Below are positions 20,805-46,650 of a DNA stretch of 64,000 nucleotides, in pieces. The stretch's first letter is position 1, and the number at the start of each line of letters is the position of its first letter. The notes below the pieces were generated by a model, which did not search any database, was not told the origin of the DNA, and was given only the letters and a program-made list of their open reading frames with translations. The translations under genes were made by a program, and so were the position numbers. The DNA is taken from NCBI RefSeq assembly GCF_054482525.1, contig NZ_CM137006.1; one strand, written 5' to 3'.

Positions 20805-23029
20805 TATCGTTCTGCCGTGAAAAGTGTTTGAATATCATCGCGTAACAGCTGAGCGTCGGTGTAAATCCAGCTGTGAGTCATCACAGCCTGCTGCAATTGC
20901 TGCTGCATCAGCCTGACCACCGATTCATTTTGTTGACGCAGAGCCAGGCTTTCGCGTAAACGCGTCTGTAATTCCGTCAAACATGAAGCGAACTCAGCGA
21001 AAAAAGTATTCATGCCTGCCGTAACAGATTCATCGACCTGCTCTGCCAGAACTTTAGCCATTTGTTGGCAATAAAGATCGACTTCTGCGCTTAATGCTCG
21101 TTGCAACACACTGTAATCAACCGTCTCTGTCGGGGATTTCTCATTTCCCCGTCCCCAGTCGGGCTGATTCAACCAGCGCGAAAAAGTCTCACGCACAACG
21201 CCTAAACGCGTGCTCTGCTCGTCCGTTGCTTCCTGGCGCGAAATGACTTCACTGAACAGCTGGCGAGTGTTGAAGTGGGGAACTGCGCCGTGAAAAACAG
21301 GAAAATGAAACCCAGGACGAAACCCTGACTCGCTCAATTCCATTTTGATTTGTTGCTCAATGGGCCGAATAACATCGGTTAACACCCGGCAAAGGGTGGA
21401 TTCCAGCTCGGCAAAACGCAGCGTAAAGTCGCGACTGATGGTGTTCTGCGCCGTCTGTAACAGTGTCTCACAGCGGGTACGAATCTCGCTTAACGGCTCC
21501 GAATCATCCTGAAACAAGGCGGCTAACTGCGCATTCAGCGCATCTTGCTGTTGACGCAGAAAGTGGTTGGCGGAGGTCAGGGCCAGCTCGATTTCATGTT
21601 TAATCTCGCCGCTCACCTGCGCCTGATTGAGTTGCAATAGCTGCAAACTTTCTTCGATCTGATGGATATTTTGCCGCAATTGTTCACAAGCGACGTTTAA
21701 CCCGTGCGCACGAAAATCCAGGTATTCCCGCGCCTGCTGCGCGTAATTCAACAGTTTATGCGCGGCAGATCGCAGAGCATACAACGAGGCGTTAGCGTAA
21801 GCGGCATGAAGCAACGCCTGAATTGGCTGGGCGAACAGCGAATCTTCCCACAACTGATCGGCAGCATGACGAATATGTTCGAGGTCCGCCAGATCGGCAT
21901 GACGCCAGCGCCTGCCGAGCGCGGCATGGGCAAAATCTTCCACCCAGCGTTGTTGCTCTGGCGGTGGTAACTTACCGTTGTTGGCTAACTCATGGCGCGC
22001 CCGATTCGCCAGGTAGCCCCACATCGACGACACCGGAAATATCTGCTGTGGCGTAATACAGCCTTTCATCAGCGTCCCGGAAATCAGTGCCCGCACCTGG
22101 TCGGCGTCGTCACTGTTACGATCCTGTTGATCGAACTTATTGACCAGCACATACAGCGGCACCGATTGCCCCACCGCCAAAATCGCCTCACGGACCTCTT
22201 CATCGGAGATCGATTTCAGTTGCGTATAATCCAGCACCGCCAGTACCGCCGAGGCGCGTGCCAGCTGCTGGTTAAGCATTTTTTGCAGATGCGGTTGCCC
22301 GGCTTCATTTGGCCCAGGGGTATCCAGTAACGTCAACTGACCGGGATAACTCTCCAGCCCCGCCAGATGGACAAACTCCACTTCAATCACGGGAATATAC
22401 TCAATGGCGGCGTAAGCAGAAAAAGGAAAATCGACGTCCAGCGCCTTCGCCAGTCGCACCAAATCATTCAAACTTTTCAGACAATGAAAAATAGGCTGGG
22501 CACCCAGATAATATTTTTCGAAAGCGACGCCATTTTCGATCCGCTGCATAAGCGCACGCATATCTTTATCTATTTCCAGCACATCGGTCAGATGCTTAAT
22601 ATCGCAATCACACAGGCGCTGTTGTAATTTTTGAATTAAACAATCGATTGGCGCGACATGTGAAAAATGCAGTACCGGTTCCTTTTGCCCGGGCGTATGG
22701 CGAATAAGCGTCGGCAGCGCAGTCATTGGGCGATTACGATTAGGCAAAACCTCCGTACCAACAATGGCATTAATGGTAGTTGATTTCCCTGCTTTCATGG
22801 TACCGACAATCGCCAGCACCATTTCCAGTCGGGAAATTTTACGCAACTCATTATTCAGCATCGCGTGACGTTCGGCGATATTAGGCTGACTCCAGGGTAA
22901 AGCCAGTTGTGGCGCATCGTCTCCGGGGACAGAGAGAGGCATTTTTTCCAGTAACTGCAACTGTTGGCGAGAAAGCTGTAACAGGCGTTCAGCCTCCTGA
23001 CTTAACTCATACAGGGTCTGTGTGTACAT
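20801..23029 (-). CDS. crfC: Dynamin-like GTPase CrfC (YjdA), 742 aa
   Basis: Large ORF with N-terminal P-loop (GTMKAGKST) GTPase domain; position between phnA and yjcZ. Confidence 0.85.
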   Translation of the reverse strand: MYTQTLYELSQEAERLLQLSRQQLQLLEKMPLSVPGDDAPQLALPWSQPNIAERHAMLNNELRKISRLEMVLAIVGTMKAGKSTTINAIVGTEVLPNRNRPMTALPTLIRHTPGQKEPVLHFSHVAPIDCLIQKLQQRLCDCDIKHLTDVLEIDKDMRALMQRIENGVAFEKYYLGAQPIFHCLKSLNDLVRLAKALDVDFPFSAYAAIEYIPVIEVEFVHLAGLESYPGQLTLLDTPGPNEAGQPHLQKMLNQQLARASAVLAVLDYTQLKSISDEEVREAILAVGQSVPLYVLVNKFDQQDRNSDDADQVRALISGTLMKGCITPQQIFPVSSMWGYLANRARHELANNGKLPPPEQQRWVEDFAHAALGRRWRHADLADLEHIRHAADQLWEDSLFAQPIQALLHAAYANASLYALRSAAHKLLNYAQQAREYLDFRAHGLNVACEQLRQNIHQIEESLQLLQLNQAQVSGEIKHEIELALTSANHFLRQQQDALNAQLAALFQDDSEPLSEIRTRCETLLQTAQNTISRDFTLRFAELESTLCRVLTDVIRPIEQQIKMELSESGFRPGFHFPVFHGAVPHFNTRQLFSEVISRQEATDEQSTRLGVVRETFSRWLNQPDWGRGNEKSPTETVDYSVLQRALSAEVDLYCQQMAKVLAEQVDESVTAGMNTFFAEFASCLTELQTRLRESLALRQQNESVVRLMQQQLQQAVMTHSWIYTDAQLLRDDIQTLFTAERY

Positions 23030-35493: not shown

Positions 35494-35823
35494 TCAACGC
35501 CCATACTCATCTTCCATTCTCCGCTCTTCATCTTCTAGCTGCCGACGCTCCTGATCCAGCTGGCGCTGGCGATCGTCCAGCTGCCTGCGGCGATCTTCAA
35601 ACTGGCGGCGGCGATCGTCATATTGTCTGCGCCGATCGTCGTTCACTTCACGCTGCCAGCCGTCGTCGCGCGAATCTTCATAGTCTCGCCCACGGTCAGG
35701 GTTATAAGCGTCGTTAATCGCCTGCTGAATATTGCCAATGGTGTCGTCGATAATATCGGCCTGGGCCGGAACGGTGGACAGCGTGAGCAGGGTGAATAAA
35801 AGAAATAGCGGAAAGCGTTTCAT
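35494..35823 (-). CDS. yjdP: Small secreted Arg/Asp/Glu-rich protein YjdP, 109 aa
   Basis: Signal peptide MKRFPLFLLFTLLTLSTVPAQA followed by charged low-complexity RRRQ repeats. Confidence 0.8.
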   Translation of the reverse strand: MKRFPLFLLFTLLTLSTVPAQADIIDDTIGNIQQAINDAYNPDRGRDYEDSRDDGWQREVNDDRRRQYDDRRRQFEDRRRQLDDRQRQLDQERRQLEDEERRMEDEYGR

Positions 35824-35891: not shown

Positions 35892-36226
35892 TCAATTTCT
35901 CCGCTGCTCTATTGCCGTAATCGCCTCCACGCGTTGTTGATGACGACCGCCTTCGTACTGCGCGCCCAGCCACGCATCCACAATCATTTTTGCCAGTTCG
36001 AGGCCAACCACTCGTGAACCAAAAGCCAGTGCAACTTCACTGGCGTAATGCGGATAATCAGTACGCTCTGACGACCTGGTTTCTTTATCAATCCCCTCAC
36101 TCATTGACCATGAATAAAAGGCTGGCACAGCAACGCAGAATCCTGCGGTGCCAGCGACATGACCGCCCATTGCTCCGGTACGTTTTTTAATAAAAAACAC
36201 CGGTTGCATTGATTAATTGTGCTCAG
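35892..36226 (-). pseudogene. rpiB: rpiB (ribose-5-phosphate isomerase B) remnant: C-terminal about 67 codons recognisable, internal segment missing, 5-prime part unrelated
   Basis: Translation ends …AFGSRVVGLELAKMIVDAWLGAQYEGGRHQQRVEAITAIEQRRN which I recognise as the RpiB C-terminus; …SSERTDYPHYAS… is also present, but the segment between (with the catalytic Cys) is absent and the N-terminal 38 codons do not resemble RpiB. Confidence 0.5.
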
Positions 36227-36241
36227 GGTAATGACTCCAAC

Positions 36242-36745
36242 TTATTGATAGTGTTTTATGTTCAGATAATGCCCGATGACTTTGTCATGCAGCTCCACCG
36301 ATTTTGAGAACGACAGCGACTTCCGTCCCAGCCGTGCCAGGTGCTGCCTCAGATTCAGGTTATGCCGCTCAATTCGCTGCGTATATCGCTTGCTGATTAC
36401 GTGCAGCTTTCCCTTCAGGCGGGATTCATACAGCGGCCAGCCATCCGTCATCCATATCACCACGTCAAAGGGTGACAGCAGGCTCATAAGACGCCCCAGC
36501 GTCGCCATAGTGCGTTCACCGAATACGTGCGCAACAACCGTCTTCCGGAGACTGTCATACGCGTAAAACAGCCAGCGCTGGCGCGATTTAGCCCCGACAT
36601 AGCCCCACTGTTCGTCCATTTCCGCGCAGACGATGACGTCACTGCCCGGCTGTATGCGCGAGGTTACCGACTGCGGCCTGAGTTTTTTAAGTGACGTAAA
36701 ATCGTGTTGAGGCCAACGCCCATAATGCGGGCAGTTGCCCGGCAT
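36242..36745 (-). CDS. insB: IS1 InsB frame, 167 aa (expressed as InsAB-prime transposase by -1 frameshift)
   Basis: Translation matches IS1 InsB; overlaps insA 3-prime end around the ttaaaaaactc slippery motif. Confidence 0.9.
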
Positions 36746-36939
36746 CCAACGCCATTCATGGCCATATCAATGATTTTCTGGTGCGTACCGGGTTGAGAAG
36801 CGGTGTAAGTGAACTGCAGTTGCCATGTTTTACGGCAGTGAGAGCAGAGATAGCGCTGATGTCCGGCGGTGCTTTTGCCGTTACGCACCACCCCGTCAGT
36901 AGCTGAACAGGAGGGACAGCTGATAGAAACAGAAGCCAC
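36664..36939 (-). CDS. insA: IS1 InsA, 91 aa
   Basis: [43 protein letters not shown]… zinc-finger/HTH protein of IS1. Confidence 0.92.
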
Positions 36940-37238
36940 TGGAGCACCTCAAAAACACCATCATACACTAAATCAGTAAGTTGGCAGCATCACCTGTGCT
37001 CAGTATTTGCCGAAGTACAATATATATAATAAATATATAAAACACCTCATATTATTTACAGAGATAATAAATTCGCGTACTTTTCCCTCTTCAGCACAAA
37101 TGCCTAATAAAGTGGCGCGTTCAGCTCACACTTCTACTTATTAAAGTCGCAATTTCCCAATTATGATAACGCCAGCTTTAAATGACGTATTTTGCATGGA
37201 TTACATATTTACGACATAAATGATAAATGGAGATTTAT

Positions 37239-39726: not shown

Positions 39727-40758
39727 ATGGAAAGTACGCCGAAAAAAGCTCCTCGCAGTAAATTCCCTGCTCTGTTAGTGGTTGCGTTGGCGCTGGTTGC
39801 CCTTGTTTTCGTTATCTGGCGCGTAGACAGTGCGCCATCAACTAATGACGCCTACGCGTCAGCAGATACCATTGATGTGGTGCCGGAAGTCAGCGGTCGC
39901 ATTGTAGAACTGGCGGTCACCGACAACCAGGCGGTGAAACAGGGTGATTTGCTATTCCGCATCGACCCACGCCCATACGAAGCCAATCTGGCGAAAGCCG
40001 AAGCCTCCCTCGCGGCGCTGGATAAGCAAATTATGCTCACCCAACGTAGCGTTGACGCGCAACAGTTTGGTGCCGACTCGGTTAATGCCACGGTAGAAAA
40101 AGCCCGTGCCGCCGCGAAACAGGCCACAGATACATTACGCCGCACCGAGCCATTACTGAAAGAAGGTTTTGTCTCAGCGGAAGACGTTGACCGTGCAAGA
40201 ACTGCGCAGCGCGCCGCAGAAGCCGATCTTAATGCCGTATTGTTGCAGGCGCAGTCAGCCGCCAGTGCCGTCAGCGGCGTCGATGCGCTGGTCGCCCAAC
40301 GTGCGGCGGTCGAAGCGGATATTGCCCTGACCAAACTGCATCTGGAAATGGCGACCGTTCGCGCGCCGTTTGATGGCCGGGTCATTTCCCTCAAAACCTC
40401 CGTCGGGCAATTTGCTTCTGCCATGCGCCCTATTTTTACCCTAATCGACACTCGTCACTGGTACGTGATCGCCAACTTCCGCGAAACCGATCTGAAAAAT
40501 ATTCGCTCAGGTACACCCGCAACGATTCGCCTGATGAGCGACAGCGGCAAAACCTTCGAGGGTAAAGTGGATTCGATTGGCTACGGCGTGCTACCGGATG
40601 ACGGCGGTCTGGTGCTGGGCGGCCTGCCGAAAGTGTCTCGTTCTATTAACTGGGTCCGCGTTGCCCAGCGTTTTCCGGTCAAAATCATGGTTGATAAACC
40701 TGACCCGGAAATGTTCCGCATCGGCGCTTCGGCAGTCGCTAATCTTGAGCCGCAATAA
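39727..40758 (+). CDS. mdtN: Efflux pump membrane fusion protein MdtN (HlyD family), 343 aa
   Basis: N-terminal TM anchor, coiled-coil and lipoyl-like domains. Confidence 0.88.
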   Translation: MESTPKKAPRSKFPALLVVALALVALVFVIWRVDSAPSTNDAYASADTIDVVPEVSGRIVELAVTDNQAVKQGDLLFRIDPRPYEANLAKAEASLAALDKQIMLTQRSVDAQQFGADSVNATVEKARAAAKQATDTLRRTEPLLKEGFVSAEDVDRARTAQRAAEADLNAVLLQAQSAASAVSGVDALVAQRAAVEADIALTKLHLEMATVRAPFDGRVISLKTSVGQFASAMRPIFTLIDTRHWYVIANFRETDLKNIRSGTPATIRLMSDSGKTFEGKVDSIGYGVLPDDGGLVLGGLPKVSRSINWVRVAQRFPVKIMVDKPDPEMFRIGASAVANLEPQ

Positions 40759-42809
40759 TGAGCGCGCTCAACTCCCTGCCATTACCGGTGGTCAGGCTGC
40801 TGGCGTTCTTTCATGAAGAGTTAAGCGAGCGGCGACCAGGCCGCGTGCCGCAGACTATGCAACTCTGGGTAGGCTGCCTGCTGGTGATTCTGATCTCGAT
40901 GACTTTTGAGATCCCTTTTGTGGCGTTATCGCTGGCAGTGCTGTTTTACGGTATTCAGTCGAACGCGTTTTACACCAAATTTGTCGCGATCTTGTTTGTG
41001 GTCGCCACGATGCTGGAGATCGGCAGCCTGTTTTTGATCTACAAATGGTCATATGGCGAACCGTTGATCCGATTGATCATCGCCGGACCGATCCTGATGG
41101 GCTGCATGTTTTTGATGCGCACCCATCGGCTGGGGCTGGTCTTTTTCGCCGTCGCCATTGTCGCTATTTACGGGCAAACCTTCCCCGCCATGCTCGACTA
41201 TCCGGAAGTGGTCGTGCGCTTAACCCTGTGGTGTATCGTTGTCGGCCTCTACCCGACGTTATTGATGACGTTAATCGGCGTGCTGTGGTTTCCCAGCCGC
41301 GCTATCACGCAGATGCATCAGGCGCTTAATGATCGGCTTGATGATGCCATTAGTCACCTGACGGACAGCCTCGCACCGCTACCCGAAACGCGGATTGAAA
41401 GAGAGGCGCTGGCGCTGCAAAAACTCAATGTCTTTTGCCTCGCGGACGATGCCAACTGGCGAACTCAGAGCGCATGGTGGCAAAGCTGCGTGGCAACGGT
41501 AACCTACATTTACTCGACGCTGAATCGCTACGATCCCACCTCTTTTGCTGATTCTCAGGCAATTATTGAATTTCGGCAAAAATTAGCCTCAGAAATCAAC
41601 AAACTGCAGCATGCCATTGCCGAAGGTCAGTGCTGGCAAAGCGACTGGCGGATCACTGAAAGTGAAGCGATGGCGGCACGGGAATGTAACCTGGAGAATA
41701 TCTGCCAGACATTGTTGCAACTGGGTCAGATGGACCCGAATACGCCGCCAACGCCCGCCGCCAAACCGCCATCAATGGTCGCCGATGCTTTTACCAATCC
41801 AGACTATATGCGCTACGCGGTAAAAACGCTGCTCGCCTGTTTGATCTGTTACACCTTCTACAGCGGCGTGGACTGGGAAGGCATTCACACCTGTATGCTG
41901 ACCTGCGTGATCGTCGCTAACCCGAATGTTGGTTCGTCGTATCAGAAAATGGCGCTGCGTTTTGGCGGTGCCTTCTGCGGTGCAATTCTGGCGCTGTTAT
42001 TCACGTTACTGGTCATGCCCTGGCTGGACAATATTGTCGAATTGCTATTTGTGCTGGCACCGATTTTTCTGTTGGGCGCATGGATTGCCACCAGCTCTGA
42101 ACGCTCTTCTTATATCGGCACACAGATGGTGGTCACCTTCGCGCTCGCCACGCTCGAAAACGTTTTTGGCCCGGTGTACGACCTGGTGGAAATTCGCGAT
42201 CGCGCCCTGGGTATCATCATTGGTACCGTGGTGTCCGCGGTGATTTACACCTTTGTCTGGCCTGAAAGTGAAGCGCGCACACTGCCGCAAAAACTGGCTG
42301 GCGCGCTGGGTATGTTGAGTAAAGTAATGCGGATCCCACGCCAGCAGGAAGTCACGGCTCTGCGCACTTATCTGCAAATTCGTATAGGTCTGCATGCGGC
42401 GTTTAATGCCTGTGAAGAGATGTGCCAACGCGTGGCGCTGGAGCGTCAACTGGACAGCGAAGAACGCGCTTTACTGATTGAACGTTCGCAAACGGTTATT
42501 CGTCAGGGCCGCGATATTCTTCACGCCTGGGATGCAACCTGGAACTCGGCGCAGGCGCTGGATAACGCACTACAGCCGGACAGAGCAGGTCAGTTTGCCG
42601 ACGCACTGGAGAAATACGCTGCCGGTCTGGCAACCGCACTCAGCCGTTCTCCTCAAATAACGCTTGAAGAAACACCCGCCTCGCAGGCCATCCTGCCGAC
42701 CTTATTAAAACAGGAACAACACGTCTGCCAGCTTTTCGCCCGCTTGCCAGACTGGACAGCCCCGGCATTAACGCCCGCCAAGGAACAGGTACAAGGAGCC
42801 ACGCAATGA
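40758..42809 (+). CDS. mdtO: Efflux pump inner membrane component MdtO (aromatic acid exporter/FUSC family), 683 aa
   Basis: Two hydrophobic domains separated by cytoplasmic region; operon position. Confidence 0.88.
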   Translation: MSALNSLPLPVVRLLAFFHEELSERRPGRVPQTMQLWVGCLLVILISMTFEIPFVALSLAVLFYGIQSNAFYTKFVAILFVVATMLEIGSLFLIYKWSYGEPLIRLIIAGPILMGCMFLMRTHRLGLVFFAVAIVAIYGQTFPAMLDYPEVVVRLTLWCIVVGLYPTLLMTLIGVLWFPSRAITQMHQALNDRLDDAISHLTDSLAPLPETRIEREALALQKLNVFCLADDANWRTQSAWWQSCVATVTYIYSTLNRYDPTSFADSQAIIEFRQKLASEINKLQHAIAEGQCWQSDWRITESEAMAARECNLENICQTLLQLGQMDPNTPPTPAAKPPSMVADAFTNPDYMRYAVKTLLACLICYTFYSGVDWEGIHTCMLTCVIVANPNVGSSYQKMALRFGGAFCGAILALLFTLLVMPWLDNIVELLFVLAPIFLLGAWIATSSERSSYIGTQMVVTFALATLENVFGPVYDLVEIRDRALGIIIGTVVSAVIYTFVWPESEARTLPQKLAGALGMLSKVMRIPRQQEVTALRTYLQIRIGLHAAFNACEEMCQRVALERQLDSEERALLIERSQTVIRQGRDILHAWDATWNSAQALDNALQPDRAGQFADALEKYAAGLATALSRSPQITLEETPASQAILPTLLKQEQHVCQLFARLPDWTAPALTPAKEQVQGATQ

Positions 42810-44305
42810 TCAATCGTCAACTTTCACGTCTGCTGTTGTGCAGCATTCTCGGCAGCACGACGCTGATTTCCGGCTGTGCCCTGGTACGTAAGGATTCTGC
42901 ACCTCATCAACAGCTCAAACCGGAACAAATCAAACTGGCCGATGATATTCATCTTGCCAGCTCCGGCTGGCCGCAGGCGCAGTGGTGGAAACAACTCAAT
43001 GACCCGCAGCTGGATGCGCTGATCCAACGGACGCTAAGTGGTTCACACACCCTCGCCGAAGCGAAACTGCGGGAAGAAAAAGCGCAGTCGCAGGCCGATT
43101 TGTTAGATGCCGGTTCACAGTTGCAGGTGGCCGCGTTAGGGATGCTCAACCGACAACGTGTCTCGGCGAACGGCTTTTTAAGCCCTTATGCGATGGATGC
43201 GCCAGCACTGGGTATGGACGGGCCGTACTATACGGAAGCCACAGTCGGTTTGTTTGCCGGACTGGATCTTGATTTGTGGGGTGTGCATCGCTCAGCGGTT
43301 GCCGCCGCCATTGGCGCGCATAATGCCGCGCTGGCAGAAACCGCAGCAGTAGAGCTATCGCTGACCACGGGCGTAGCGCAGCTTTATTACAGTATGCAGG
43401 CCAGCTATCAGATGCTCGATCTGTTAGAACAAACACGCGATGTGATTGATTACGCGGTGAAAGCGCACCAGAGTAAAGTGGCGCACGGTCTGGAAGCGCA
43501 CCAGAGTAAAGTGGCGCACGGTCTGGAAGCGCAAGTGCCTTTCCACGGCGCGCGGGCACAGATTCTGGCGGTCGATAAACAAATTGCTGCCGTTAAAGGG
43601 CAAATCACCGAAACGCGAGAATCTCTGCGTGCATTGATTGGCGCGGGAGCCAGCGATATGCCGGAGATCAAACCGGTGGCATTACCGCAAGTCCAGACCG
43701 GCATTCCGGCGACACTCTCTTATGAGTTGCTCGCCAGACGCCCGGATCTGCAAGCCATGCGCTGGTATGTTCAGGCGTCATTAGATCAGGTGGATTCCGC
43801 GCGGGCGCTGTTCTATCCGAGCTTTGATATCAAAGCGTTTTTCGGCCTGGATTCTATCCACCTGGATACCTTATTCAAAAAAACCAGTCGCCAGTTCAAC
43901 TTTATCCCAGGTCTGAAATTGCCGCTGTTTGACGGTGGACGGTTGAATGCCAATCTCGAAGGCACTCGCGCCGCCAGCAACATGATGATTGAACGTTACA
44001 ACCAGTCAGTGCTGAATGCGGTGCGCGACGTTGCCGTCAACGGCACGCGTCTGCAAACGCTCAACGACGAGCGAGAGATGCAGGCTGAACGCGTGGAAGC
44101 AACGCGCTTCACCCAGCGCGCTGCCGAGGCCGCCTATCAACGCGGCTTAACCAGCCGCTTACAGGCCACCGAAGCCCGGTTGCCAGTGCTTGCCGAGGAG
44201 ATGTCATTACTGATGCTGGACAGCCGCCGGGTGATCCAAAGCATTCAGTTGATGAAATCGCTGGGCGGCGGGTATCAGGCAAGTCCCGTCGTCGAGAAAA
44301 AATAA
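42806..44305 (+). CDS. mdtP: Outer membrane efflux factor MdtP (TolC-like), 499 aa, containing an 11-residue tandem duplication
   Basis: Lipoprotein signal (LISGCAL); OMF family; internal repeat HQSKVAHGLEA x2. Confidence 0.88.
   Translation: MINRQLSRLLLCSILGSTTLISGCALVRKDSAPHQQLKPEQIKLADDIHLASSGWPQAQWWKQLNDPQLDALIQRTLSGSHTLAEAKLREEKAQSQADLLDAGSQLQVAALGMLNRQRVSANGFLSPYAMDAPALGMDGPYYTEATVGLFAGLDLDLWGVHRSAVAAAIGAHNAALAETAAVELSLTTGVAQLYYSMQASYQMLDLLEQTRDVIDYAVKAHQSKVAHGLEAHQSKVAHGLEAQVPFHGARAQILAVDKQIAAVKGQITETRESLRALIGAGASDMPEIKPVALPQVQTGIPATLSYELLARRPDLQAMRWYVQASLDQVDSARALFYPSFDIKAFFGLDSIHLDTLFKKTSRQFNFIPGLKLPLFDGGRLNANLEGTRAASNMMIERYNQSVLNAVRDVAVNGTRLQTLNDEREMQAERVEATRFTQRAAEAAYQRGLTSRLQATEARLPVLAEEMSLLMLDSRRVIQSIQLMKSLGGGYQASPVVEKK
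43461..43533 (+). repeat. Perfect 33 bp tandem duplication (aagcgcaccagagtaaagtggcgcacggtctgg x2, plus 7 bp of a third unit) inside mdtP
   Basis: Read directly from sequence; in-frame. Confidence 0.95.
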
Positions 44306-44502: not shown

Positions 44503-46650
44503 ATGAAAAAAGTCGTCACGGTTTGCCCCTATTGCGCATCAGGTTGCAAAATCAACCTGGTCGTCGATAACGGCAAAATCGTCCGGGCGGAGGCAGCGCA
44601 GGGGAAAACCAACCAGGGTACCCTGTGTCTGAAGGGTTATTATGGCTGGGATTTCATTAACGATACCCAGATCCTGACCCCGCGCCTGAAAACCCCCATG
44701 ATCCGTCGCCAGCGTGGCGGCAAACTCGAACCTGTTTCCTGGGATGAGGCACTGAATTACGTTGCCGAGCGCCTGAGCGCCATCAAAGAGAAGTACGGTC
44801 CGGATGCCATCCAGACGACCGGCTCCTCGCGTGGTACGGGTAACGAAACCAACTATGTAATGCAAAAATTTGCGCGCGCCGTTATTGGTACCAATAACGT
44901 TGACTGCTGCGCTCGTGTCTGACACGGCCCATCGGTTGCAGGTCTGCACCAATCGGTCGGTAATGGCGCAATGAGCAATGCTATTAACGAAATTGATAAT
45001 ACCGATTTAGTGTTCGTTTTCGGGTACAACCCGGCGGATTCCCACCCAATCGTGGCGAACCACGTAATTAACGCTAAACGTAACGGGGCGAAAATTATCG
45101 TCTGCGATCCGCGCAAAATTGAAACCGCGCGCATTGCTGACATGCACATTGCACTGAAAAACGGCTCGAACATCGCGCTGTTGAATGCGATGGGCCATGT
45201 CATTATTGAAGAAAATCTGTACGACAAAGCATTCGTCGCTTCCCGTACAGAAGGCTTTGAAGAGTATCGTAAAATCGTTGAAGGCTACACGCCGGAGTCG
45301 GTTGAAGATATCACCGGCGTCAGCGCCAATGAGATTCGTCAGGCGGCACGGATGTATGCCCAGGCGAAAAGCGCCGCCATCCTGTGGGGCATGGGTGTAA
45401 CCCAGTTCTACCAGGGCGTGGAAACCGTGCGTTCTCTGACCAGCCTCGCGATGCTGACCGGTAACCTCGGTAAGCCACATGCGGGTGTTAACCCGGTTCG
45501 TGGTCAGAACAACGTACAGGGTGCCTGCGATATGGGCGCGCTGCCGGATACGTATCCGGGATACCAGTACGTGAAAGATCCGGCTAACCGCGAGAAATTC
45601 GCCAAAGCCTGGGGCGTGGAAAGCCTGCCTGCTCATACCGGTTATCGCATCAGCGAGCTGCCGCACCGCGCAGCGCATGGTGAAGTGCGTGCCGCGTACA
45701 TTATGGGCGAAGATCCGCTGCAAACTGACGCGGAGCTGTCGGCAGTACGTAAAGCCTTTGAAGATCTGGAACTGGTTATCGTTCAGGACATCTTTATGAC
45801 CAAAACCGCGTCGGCGGCGGATGTTATTTTACCGTCAACGTCGTGGGGCGAGCATGAAGGCGTGTTTACTGCGGCTGACCGTGGCTTCCAGCGTTTCTTC
45901 AAAGCGGTTGAACCGAAGTGGGATCTGAAAACGGACTGGCAGATTATCAGTGAAATCGCCACTCGTATGGGTTATCCGATGCACTACAACAACACCCAGG
46001 AGATCTGGGATGAGTTGCGTCATCTGTGCCCGGATTTCTACGGTGCGACTTACGAGAAAATGGGCGAACTGGGCTTCATTCAGTGGCCTTGCCGCGATAC
46101 TTCAGATGCCGATCAGGGGACTTCTTATCTGTTTAAAGAGAAGTTTGATACCCCGAACGGTCTGGCGCAGTTCTTCACCTGCGACTGGGTAGCGCCAATC
46201 GACAAACTCACCGACGAGTACCCGATGGTACTGTCAACGGTGCGTGAAGTTGGTCACTACTCTTGCCGTTCGATGACCGGTAACTGTGCGGCACTGGCGG
46301 CGCTGGCTGATGAACCTGGCTACGCACAAATCAATACCGAAGACGCCAAACGTCTGGGTATTGAAGATGAGGCATTGGTTTGGGTGCACTCGCGTAAAGG
46401 CAAAATTATCACCCGTGCGCAGGTCAGCGATCGTCCGAACAAAGGGGCGATTTATATGACCTACCAGTGGTGGATTGGTGCCTGTAACGAGCTGGTTACC
46501 GAAAACTTAAGCCCGATTACGAAAACGCCGGAATACAAATACTGCGCCGTGCGCGTCGAGCCGATCGCCGATCAGCGCGCCGCCGAGCAGTACGTGATTG
46601 ACGAGTACAACAAGTTGAAAACTCGCCTGCGCGAAGCGGCACTGGCGTAA
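44503..46650 (+). CDS. fdhF: Formate dehydrogenase H (selenocysteine-containing molybdoenzyme) FdhF, 715 aa with in-frame UGA (Sec) at 44920..44922
   Basis: Two adjacent same-frame ORFs (44503..44922 and 44971..46650) joined by a TGA; N-terminal 4Fe-4S Cys motif CPYCASGC; SECIS hairpin follows the TGA. Confidence 0.93.
44920..44970 (+). other. SECIS element: UGA plus downstream stem-loop (cacggcccatcggttgcaggtctgcaccaatcggtcgg)
   Basis: Matches the fdhF SECIS hairpin as I recall it; positioned immediately 3-prime of the in-frame TGA. Confidence 0.8.

Follow-up and report, generated by a model that had tools for sequence, protein, structure and literature searches.

[quoted passage not shown] The lipoprotein outer-membrane factor MdsC, which is of the same type as MdtP, loses its pump function through either G220A (situated at the tip of repeat 1) or G433A alone; adaptor cross-linking falls to 20-39% in these mutants and the channel does not become leaky (PMC4069162). 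MdtP itself is poorly characterised: its null mutants display greater sensitivity to puromycin, acriflavine and tetraphenylarsonium, and the promoters are unconfirmed (PMC11762307). The MdtP of E. coli K-12 (YjcP/SdsP, UniProt P32714) shares with the protein described here the gene, the genomic context (ytcA-mdtN-mdtO-mdtP-fdhF), the equivalog cut-off and the lipobox cysteine (Cys24), and the sequence of the 33-bp unit that is duplicated in our locus is the same in laboratory E. coli strains. The two proteins differ in that K-12 MdtP has 488 aa and a third helix (H3) of 67 residues, whereas the present one has 499 aa and a predicted H3 of 78 residues, the 11 additional residues being located at the H3/H4 tip. 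We consider it very probable that the longer form results from a genuine, lineage-specific, in-frame 33-bp tandem duplication, of which the account given below (including the origin of the duplication and its effects) is the best explanation.

The mdtNOP locus and its repeat

In the window (i.e. the whole 64-kb stretch of DNA that was analysed), mdtP extends from 42806 to 44305 on the plus strand (499 codons and a stop) and encodes the outer-membrane factor of the MdtNOP efflux system. It is preceded by two intact genes of the same strand: mdtN (39727-40758; NCBIfam NF007785, 535 bits), which encodes an EmrA-like periplasmic adaptor presumed to be the partner of the MdtP tip, and mdtO (40758-42809; NCBIfam NF008510, 1368 bits), which encodes an inner-membrane permease of the FUSC type and overlaps the start of mdtP by 4 bp. 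The locus order (mdtN-mdtO-mdtP-fdhF, with fdhF starting from 44503) is the one that RefSeq gives for the identical locus, and the identical gene in strain SCU-102 is called mdtP by RefSeq (WP_000610562.1), with no flag being raised by PGAP. The NCBIfam equivalog for MdtP (NF007390, a profile of 488 positions) recognised the window protein with 1020.6 bits (cutoff 597), in two stretches that are broken at the duplication. Furthermore, the protein matched TIGR01845 (NodT/OprM-type outer-membrane factor lipoproteins; Pfam OEP PF02321) with 261 bits against a cut-off of 210, and carries a lipobox (...TLISGC24) in which the predicted acylation site, C24, is kept in at least 90% of 124 homologues. 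It shows the organisation of a TolC-like fold, with two repeats that each comprise two beta-strands and a long helical hairpin. Foldseek comparisons of its AlphaFold2 model recovered CusC, SilC, VceC, CmeC, OprN, OprM and TolC (E 2e-24 to 1e-14), phmmer matched it to VceC (1.8e-40), and its nearest solved relatives are VceC, CusC, SilC, OprJ and OprM.

Downstream of mdtP, the fdhF region (window 44503-46650) appears as two open reading frames (of 139 aa and 559 aa) with an in-frame TGA, and a gap to the next ATG, in between, and is annotated by RefSeq at the identical locus as a single CDS of 715 aa. Formate dehydrogenase H is known to have selenocysteine at codon 140, and the TGA is this codon.

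The 33-bp unit AAGCGCACCAGAGTAAAGTGGCGCACGGTCTGG is present within mdtP in two perfect copies on the plus strand, the first at 43461-43493 and the second (100% identical to it) at 43494-43526. They are followed on the same strand by a 7-bp partial third copy (AAGCGCA, 43527-43533), the same seven bases with which copy 1 (43461-43467) and copy 2 (43494-43500) open. Tandem Repeats Finder (TRF) described the array by a period of 33, 2.2 copies, 100% matches, no indels and a score of 146, which is the higher score of the two tandem arrays found in the 64-kb window, and 33 consecutive matches cannot have arisen by chance. The array keeps the frame of the open reading frame of 42806-44305 (+, 499 aa), so that (A)HQSKVAHGLE(A) is encoded twice and the protein reads ...DYAVKA-HQSKVAHGLEA-HQSKVAHGLEA-QVPFHG... 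across it; in alignment, PCN033 and five other alleles have no extra copy. An earlier note on this DNA had described a perfect in-frame tandem duplication of 33 bp adding 11 residues (HQSKVAHGLEA) to MdtP, and a protein of 499 aa in place of the 488 aa of K-12. The sequence and TRF agree with the former statement, the extra residues contributed by the second copy being precisely these, and the latter is borne out by the annotation of single-copy mdtP (1467 bp, i.e. 488 aa) and by the length of the NCBIfam profile. The window's other tandem array is an imperfect one (21 bp x 3.9, 77% matches) at 35560-35640, inside yjdP; this gene is annotated as 'DDRRRQL repeat protein YjdP', and the 21-bp array yields a 7-residue protein repeat.

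Distribution and descent of the long allele

Among 5,426 complete E. coli genomes mdtP was found in 5,419, and nearly all of the listed matches span 1,467 bp (488 aa). The two-copy state was searched for with a 47-base junction query (window 43474-43520), to which a single-copy gene gives at most 27 consecutive matches, under the 28-nt seed of megablast. The query matched two of the 5,426 genomes, namely SCU-102 (from a human in California) and 19KM1776 (from a dog in Switzerland), a count that rare alleles may escape (the sampled mdtP alleles vary at unit position 11 or solely outside the unit, and keep a seed of at least 28 nt). Each of the two strains has exactly two copies of the unit. A longer query of 56 bases was uninformative, as the overlapping partial matches of single-copy genomes merge into '100% covered'. 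Moreover, the 161-bp span of the site was unchanged in a spread sample of 58 mdtP alleles.

Beyond the complete genomes, the exact 499-aa protein occurs on 262 contigs (281 blocks) from NCBI, ENA and metagenomes (one ENA metagenome scaffold included), a derivative with one residue changed occurs on 42 contigs, and the 488-aa parent protein on at least 1,000 contigs. All exact occurrences of the 499-aa protein belong to a single haplotype group of phylogroup D, to which PCN033 is related, and five independent loci with the duplication match the window completely or almost completely. The notion that the repeat was collapsed or expanded during sequencing or assembly and is absent from the cells themselves could appeal to the occasional misassembly of short tandem repeats. 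It is confronted by the recovery of the same junction in independent complete genomes of US and Swiss origin, other NCBI assemblies and the ENA metagenome scaffold, as well as by the dimension of the array (66 bp, far shorter than a sequencing read), and we give it practically no credence. Both circumstances that the earlier note had named as fatal to its claim, an assembly artefact and the presence of two copies in all E. coli mdtP alleles, were checked, and neither holds: the 281 blocks include independent assemblies, and the junction is matched in 2 of 5,426 complete genomes. We conclude that the 499-aa allele is real, established and limited to one lineage, and that it is already held by RefSeq (WP_000610562.1), unremarked in public databases. 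A literature search on mdtP, MdtNOP, sdsRQP or a tandem duplication of mdtP returned no paper that describes the 499-aa allele, and none was found on SCU-102 or 19KM1776.

With regard to polarity, the distance between the anchor residues Y194 and L277 amounts to 73 residues in 123 of 123 homologues (25-52% identity) versus 84 in the window protein, and this uniform spacing marks the long form as derived; judging from the sequences compared, the duplication is both derived and rare. The reverse course of events, in which two copies would be ancestral and the other E. coli would have deleted one of them, has nothing to recommend it but the formal symmetry of gain and loss. The single-copy state of 5,424 of the 5,426 complete genomes (across all phylogroups), the short form of all 123 distant homologues and the 488 positions of the NCBIfam profile all speak against it, to the point where we regard an ancestral pair as vanishingly improbable.

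The derived duplication can be placed in a narrow genealogical frame. When 11 kb were compared, all six duplication-carrying loci formed one haplotype together with the single-copy PCN033, a strain of serogroup O11 and phylogroup D (PMC4578781); other strains with an mdtP 99.9% identical to that of the window show roughly 50-100 differing sites over the same 11 kb. A comparison extended to 50 kb revealed 15 SNPs among the window, SCU-102, 19KM1776 and PCN033, all of which are singletons (6, 4, 2 and 3, respectively), and the ST70 outgroup displays 646 SNPs over the same 50 kb. This pattern is that of a star tree, compatible both with a single gain and with a gain followed by a precise loss in PCN033 or GCA_003324445.1. 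As all 15 SNPs are singletons, the duplication is the sole derived character shared by its carriers, and would have arisen at about the time when the clone radiated. The statement of the earlier note that the event is recent holds on this clonal time scale, PCN033 having 3 private SNPs in 50 kb. The MdtO protein specific for the clone was found in 463 blocks, and 23 of the 24 longest contigs read carry the 499-aa MdtP. The 488-aa form is encoded in GCA_003324445.1 on a 7-kb haplotype that is otherwise identical (one SNP), and both this assembly and PCN033 may be either basal single-copy members or revertants produced by precise contraction. For the tracing of strains, the duplication offers a clean marker, produced by one event, of an E. 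coli clone of phylogroup D that occurs in humans and dogs.

Two further differences among these strains were observed. The window carries an IS1 copy of 768 bp (36227-36994; terminal inverted repeats GGTAATGACTCCAACTTATTGAT ... ATCAGTAAGTTGGCAGCATCACC) between an rpiB-like gene and yjcS, bordered by a 9-bp target-site duplication (TGTGCTCAG, at 36218-36226 and 36995-37003), and SCU-102, 19KM1776 and PCN033 are devoid of IS1 at this position. Compared without gaps, the window and SCU-102 (which differ by 10 SNPs per 50 kb) fall out of register upstream of 36995, at IS1, and the absence of the element from these three strains identifies the window as a different member of the clone, a sister strain of SCU-102. 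The second difference concerns crfC, which in PCN033 (40162-42390 of the extracted locus) is annotated as a pseudogene with an internal stop and is intact in SCU-102 and 19KM1776; the lesion matches one PCN033-private change near window position 21643.

Origin of the repeat and the question of switching

Short direct repeats that bracket a unit are a classic substrate for replication slippage. In the single-copy sequence of PCN033 the 33-bp unit opens with AAGCGCA, and a second AAGCGCA stands directly after the unit, 33 bp apart from the first; misalignment between these flanking 7-bp repeats thus gives exactly the observed product. We propose that a slip during replication (or an unequal exchange) between the two AAGCGCA repeats would have doubled the 33-bp stretch once, that this event would have taken place in a phylogroup-D clone closely related to PCN033, and that clonal spread would then have carried the allele into the several hundred isolates of human, canine and metagenomic origin in which it has been sequenced. 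It is from the anatomy of the sequence that we infer a slippage origin; at the site itself neither an unusual single-strand DNA fold nor a slippage-promoting hairpin was detected (z = 0.01). The ancestral unit (window 43463-43533) contains GCGCA(C) three times, with spacings of 18 and 15 bp that TRF reports as sub-periods, and in the alleles of S3 and NCTC9082 the third of these reads GCACA, which leaves a shorter microhomology.

The earlier note had also raised the idea of a phase-variable or contraction-prone site. Under programmed (contingency) phase variation, frequent expansion and contraction of the 33-bp repeat would switch MdtP between functional states. Two perfect tandem copies are indeed a substrate for RecA-independent contraction, and the location of the single-copy alleles of PCN033 and GCA_003324445.1 on the carriers' haplotype (with 0-3 private SNPs) makes a reversion possible. 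Nevertheless, only one- and two-copy states were encountered, about 300 assemblies carry the two-copy allele without any change (and it is the form found on 23 of the 24 longest contigs with the clone-specific MdtO), and the length of the unit (a multiple of 3, i.e. 11 codons inside the CDS) generates no on/off frameshift. Furthermore, the site is unexpanded in 5,424 of the 5,426 complete genomes, despite the same 7-bp repeats in those sampled alleles that keep them. By exact look-up in about 15 billion proteins, a three-copy allele (510 aa) was absent, and so were five other slippage products (the 18- and 15-bp forms and the deletion forms among them). Contingency loci are recognised by more than two copy states among close isolates and by a switch acting through frameshift or promoter spacing, and the mdtP array displays neither. 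We therefore hold programmed switching to be very unlikely, and of the two ideas put forward in the earlier note, phase variation finds no support (one- and two-copy states being the only ones seen) and proneness to contraction survives to the extent that an occasional precise contraction is possible.

Sequence comparison within the clone leaves rare precise contraction of the 33-bp repeat a possible event, and with it an allele that might act as a reversible extension of the tip: the three helical turns added to hairpin 1 would uncouple or re-specify the docking of MdtN (or alter the gating of the channel), and contraction would restore the wild type. We rate such a function as quite unlikely; if true, it would provide the clone with a low-frequency switch of an outer-membrane channel.

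The extended periplasmic tip and its counterparts in other pumps

The position of the insertion, which the earlier note had proposed to map on a structural model, was examined with AlphaFold2 (monomer models, with a 124-sequence alignment for each allele), a method that is unreliable for the effects of insertions. Mean pLDDT reached 92.9 for the 488-aa and 92.0 for the 499-aa form, and the insertion mapped to the H3/H4 tip. In the models H3 comprises residues 160-226 (67 residues) of the 488-aa protein and 160-237 (78 residues) of the 499-aa one, the tip loop residues 227-231 (HGLEA) and 238-243, and H4 residues 232-267 and 244-278, respectively; H7, the counterpart of H3 in the second repeat, has 67 residues in both (368-434 and 379-445). 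The equal lengths of H3 and H7 (67 residues each) in the 488-aa model correspond to the architecture of TolC. The pLDDT of the tip region is 98 in the short form, and in the long one takes values of 82, 74 and 85 over residues 221-250. The codons of the first-copy tip loop (H227-G228-L229-E230-A231; 43484-43498, +) are those of the native helix-turn-helix turn between H3 and H4, and it is at the second-copy loop (H238-G239-L240-E241-A242; 43517-43531, +) that AlphaFold2 turns the chain in the 499-aa protein.

By the models and alignments, the duplicated segment thus consists of the last six residues of the descending helix H3 (HQSKVA) and the whole five-residue periplasmic tip loop (HGLEA). 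The expectation of the earlier note that the helix would be lengthened by 11 residues, or about three turns, is reproduced by the models (H3 160-226 becoming 160-237). Its assignment of the site to a helical coiled-coil segment was accurate as to the lengthening of a helix and too general as to the place, which is the end of H3 together with the docking tip loop. The tip glycine (G228 in the 488-aa and G239 in the 499-aa numbering) is kept in 119 of 124 homologues, an arginine stands four residues ahead of it in 109 of 124, and the next residue is L, I or V in 120 of 124; repeat 2 has the RxxxGL motif as well, at G436 (488-aa numbering). In the MdtP of the window the G-L tip motif is present twice within hairpin 1, at an anchor spacing of 84 as compared to the 73 of the family, a deviation from the norm that does not bar the protein from it. 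On the evidence of the models, hairpin 1 would exceed that of all other family members sampled by 11 residues, and would also be longer than its twin, hairpin 2, by which the pseudo-six-fold cogwheel at the periplasmic mouth would be broken.

We know of no experimental demonstration that MdtN docks onto MdtP. If the two proteins meet tip to tip, the extension would be expected to disturb the six-fold cogwheel and, as a consequence, to weaken or abolish the docking of MdtN. From this analysis, docking that is either impaired or unaffected appears likely, and we lean towards the view that it is weakened or lost, in what would be a tolerated loss of function (partial or complete) of a dispensable pump. 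The confident fold and the native-looking tip formed by the second HGLEA indicate that the 499-aa protein may fold, trimerise and perhaps dock. Both the reading frame and the entire mdtNOP operon are intact in hundreds of isolates, as would also be the case for a neutral or even a useful allele. With respect to the partner protein, MdtN (WP_000446378.1) is the same in the carriers of the duplication and in the single-copy PCN033, and hence shows no compensatory change.

The OmpK36 loop-3 GD duplication is an example of an adaptive in-frame duplication in an outer-membrane channel. By analogy, the extended tip of MdtP could have been selected for a change in gating or in partner (e.g. another adaptor, or an open state), and adherents of such remodelling may point to the frequency of the allele in a successful clone recovered from humans, dogs and metagenomes, to the preservation of the frame and the creation of a second intact GL tip motif, and to the general potential of in-frame duplications in outer-membrane channels to be adaptive. 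On the other hand, the duplication recurs in no other lineage among the 5,426 complete genomes, MdtN has not changed in compensation, all 123 homologues have the same hairpin length, changes of a single tip residue abolish the function of MdsC, and the frequency of the allele is explained by clonal hitch-hiking without selection. We thus deem adaptive remodelling quite unlikely; on the reading that we favour, that of weakened or lost docking, the allele would have hitch-hiked with its clone, neither selected nor operating as a programmed switch.

For genome biology the case carries little weight, being a routine slippage duplication in a known and dispensable gene. Its value resides in the natural experiment that it offers on tip-to-tip docking, in which 11 residues have been added to one of two hairpins exactly at the conserved glycine turn, and a pair of alleles (488 and 499 aa) could show how much length asymmetry is tolerated by a cogwheel interface. 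As in TolC, whose tip carries 'VGL', and MdsC, whose tips carry 'TGN/EGV', MdtP has a glycine motif (R/K-x-x-x-G-L) in both hairpin turns; G228 and G436 of MdtP (488-aa numbering) correspond to G220 and G433 of MdsC, and the motif of repeat 1 is contained in the duplicated segment. The perturbations described for TolC and MdsC are, however, laboratory point mutations, whereas in MdtP the entire turn and 1.5 helical turns have been duplicated in natural isolates. Another natural in-frame structural variant of the same gene is found in NCTC9082, in which an internal deletion of 249 bp leaves 405 aa; this variant is clearly destructive, whereas the 11-residue insertion of the window allele keeps all domains. 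The NCTC9082 deletion (NZ_LR134080.1) begins just past the duplication site, and the resulting CDS (1,218 bp, 902-2119 of the extracted locus) is labelled 'TolC family protein'. As to its formation, the mdtP array resembles other in-frame duplications generated in bacteria by microhomology-mediated strand slippage, with which it shares a short bracketing direct repeat (7 bp in mdtP), perfect copies and a length that is a multiple of three. In comparison with these the mechanism is ordinary, and it is the structural position alone that sets the duplication in mdtP apart.
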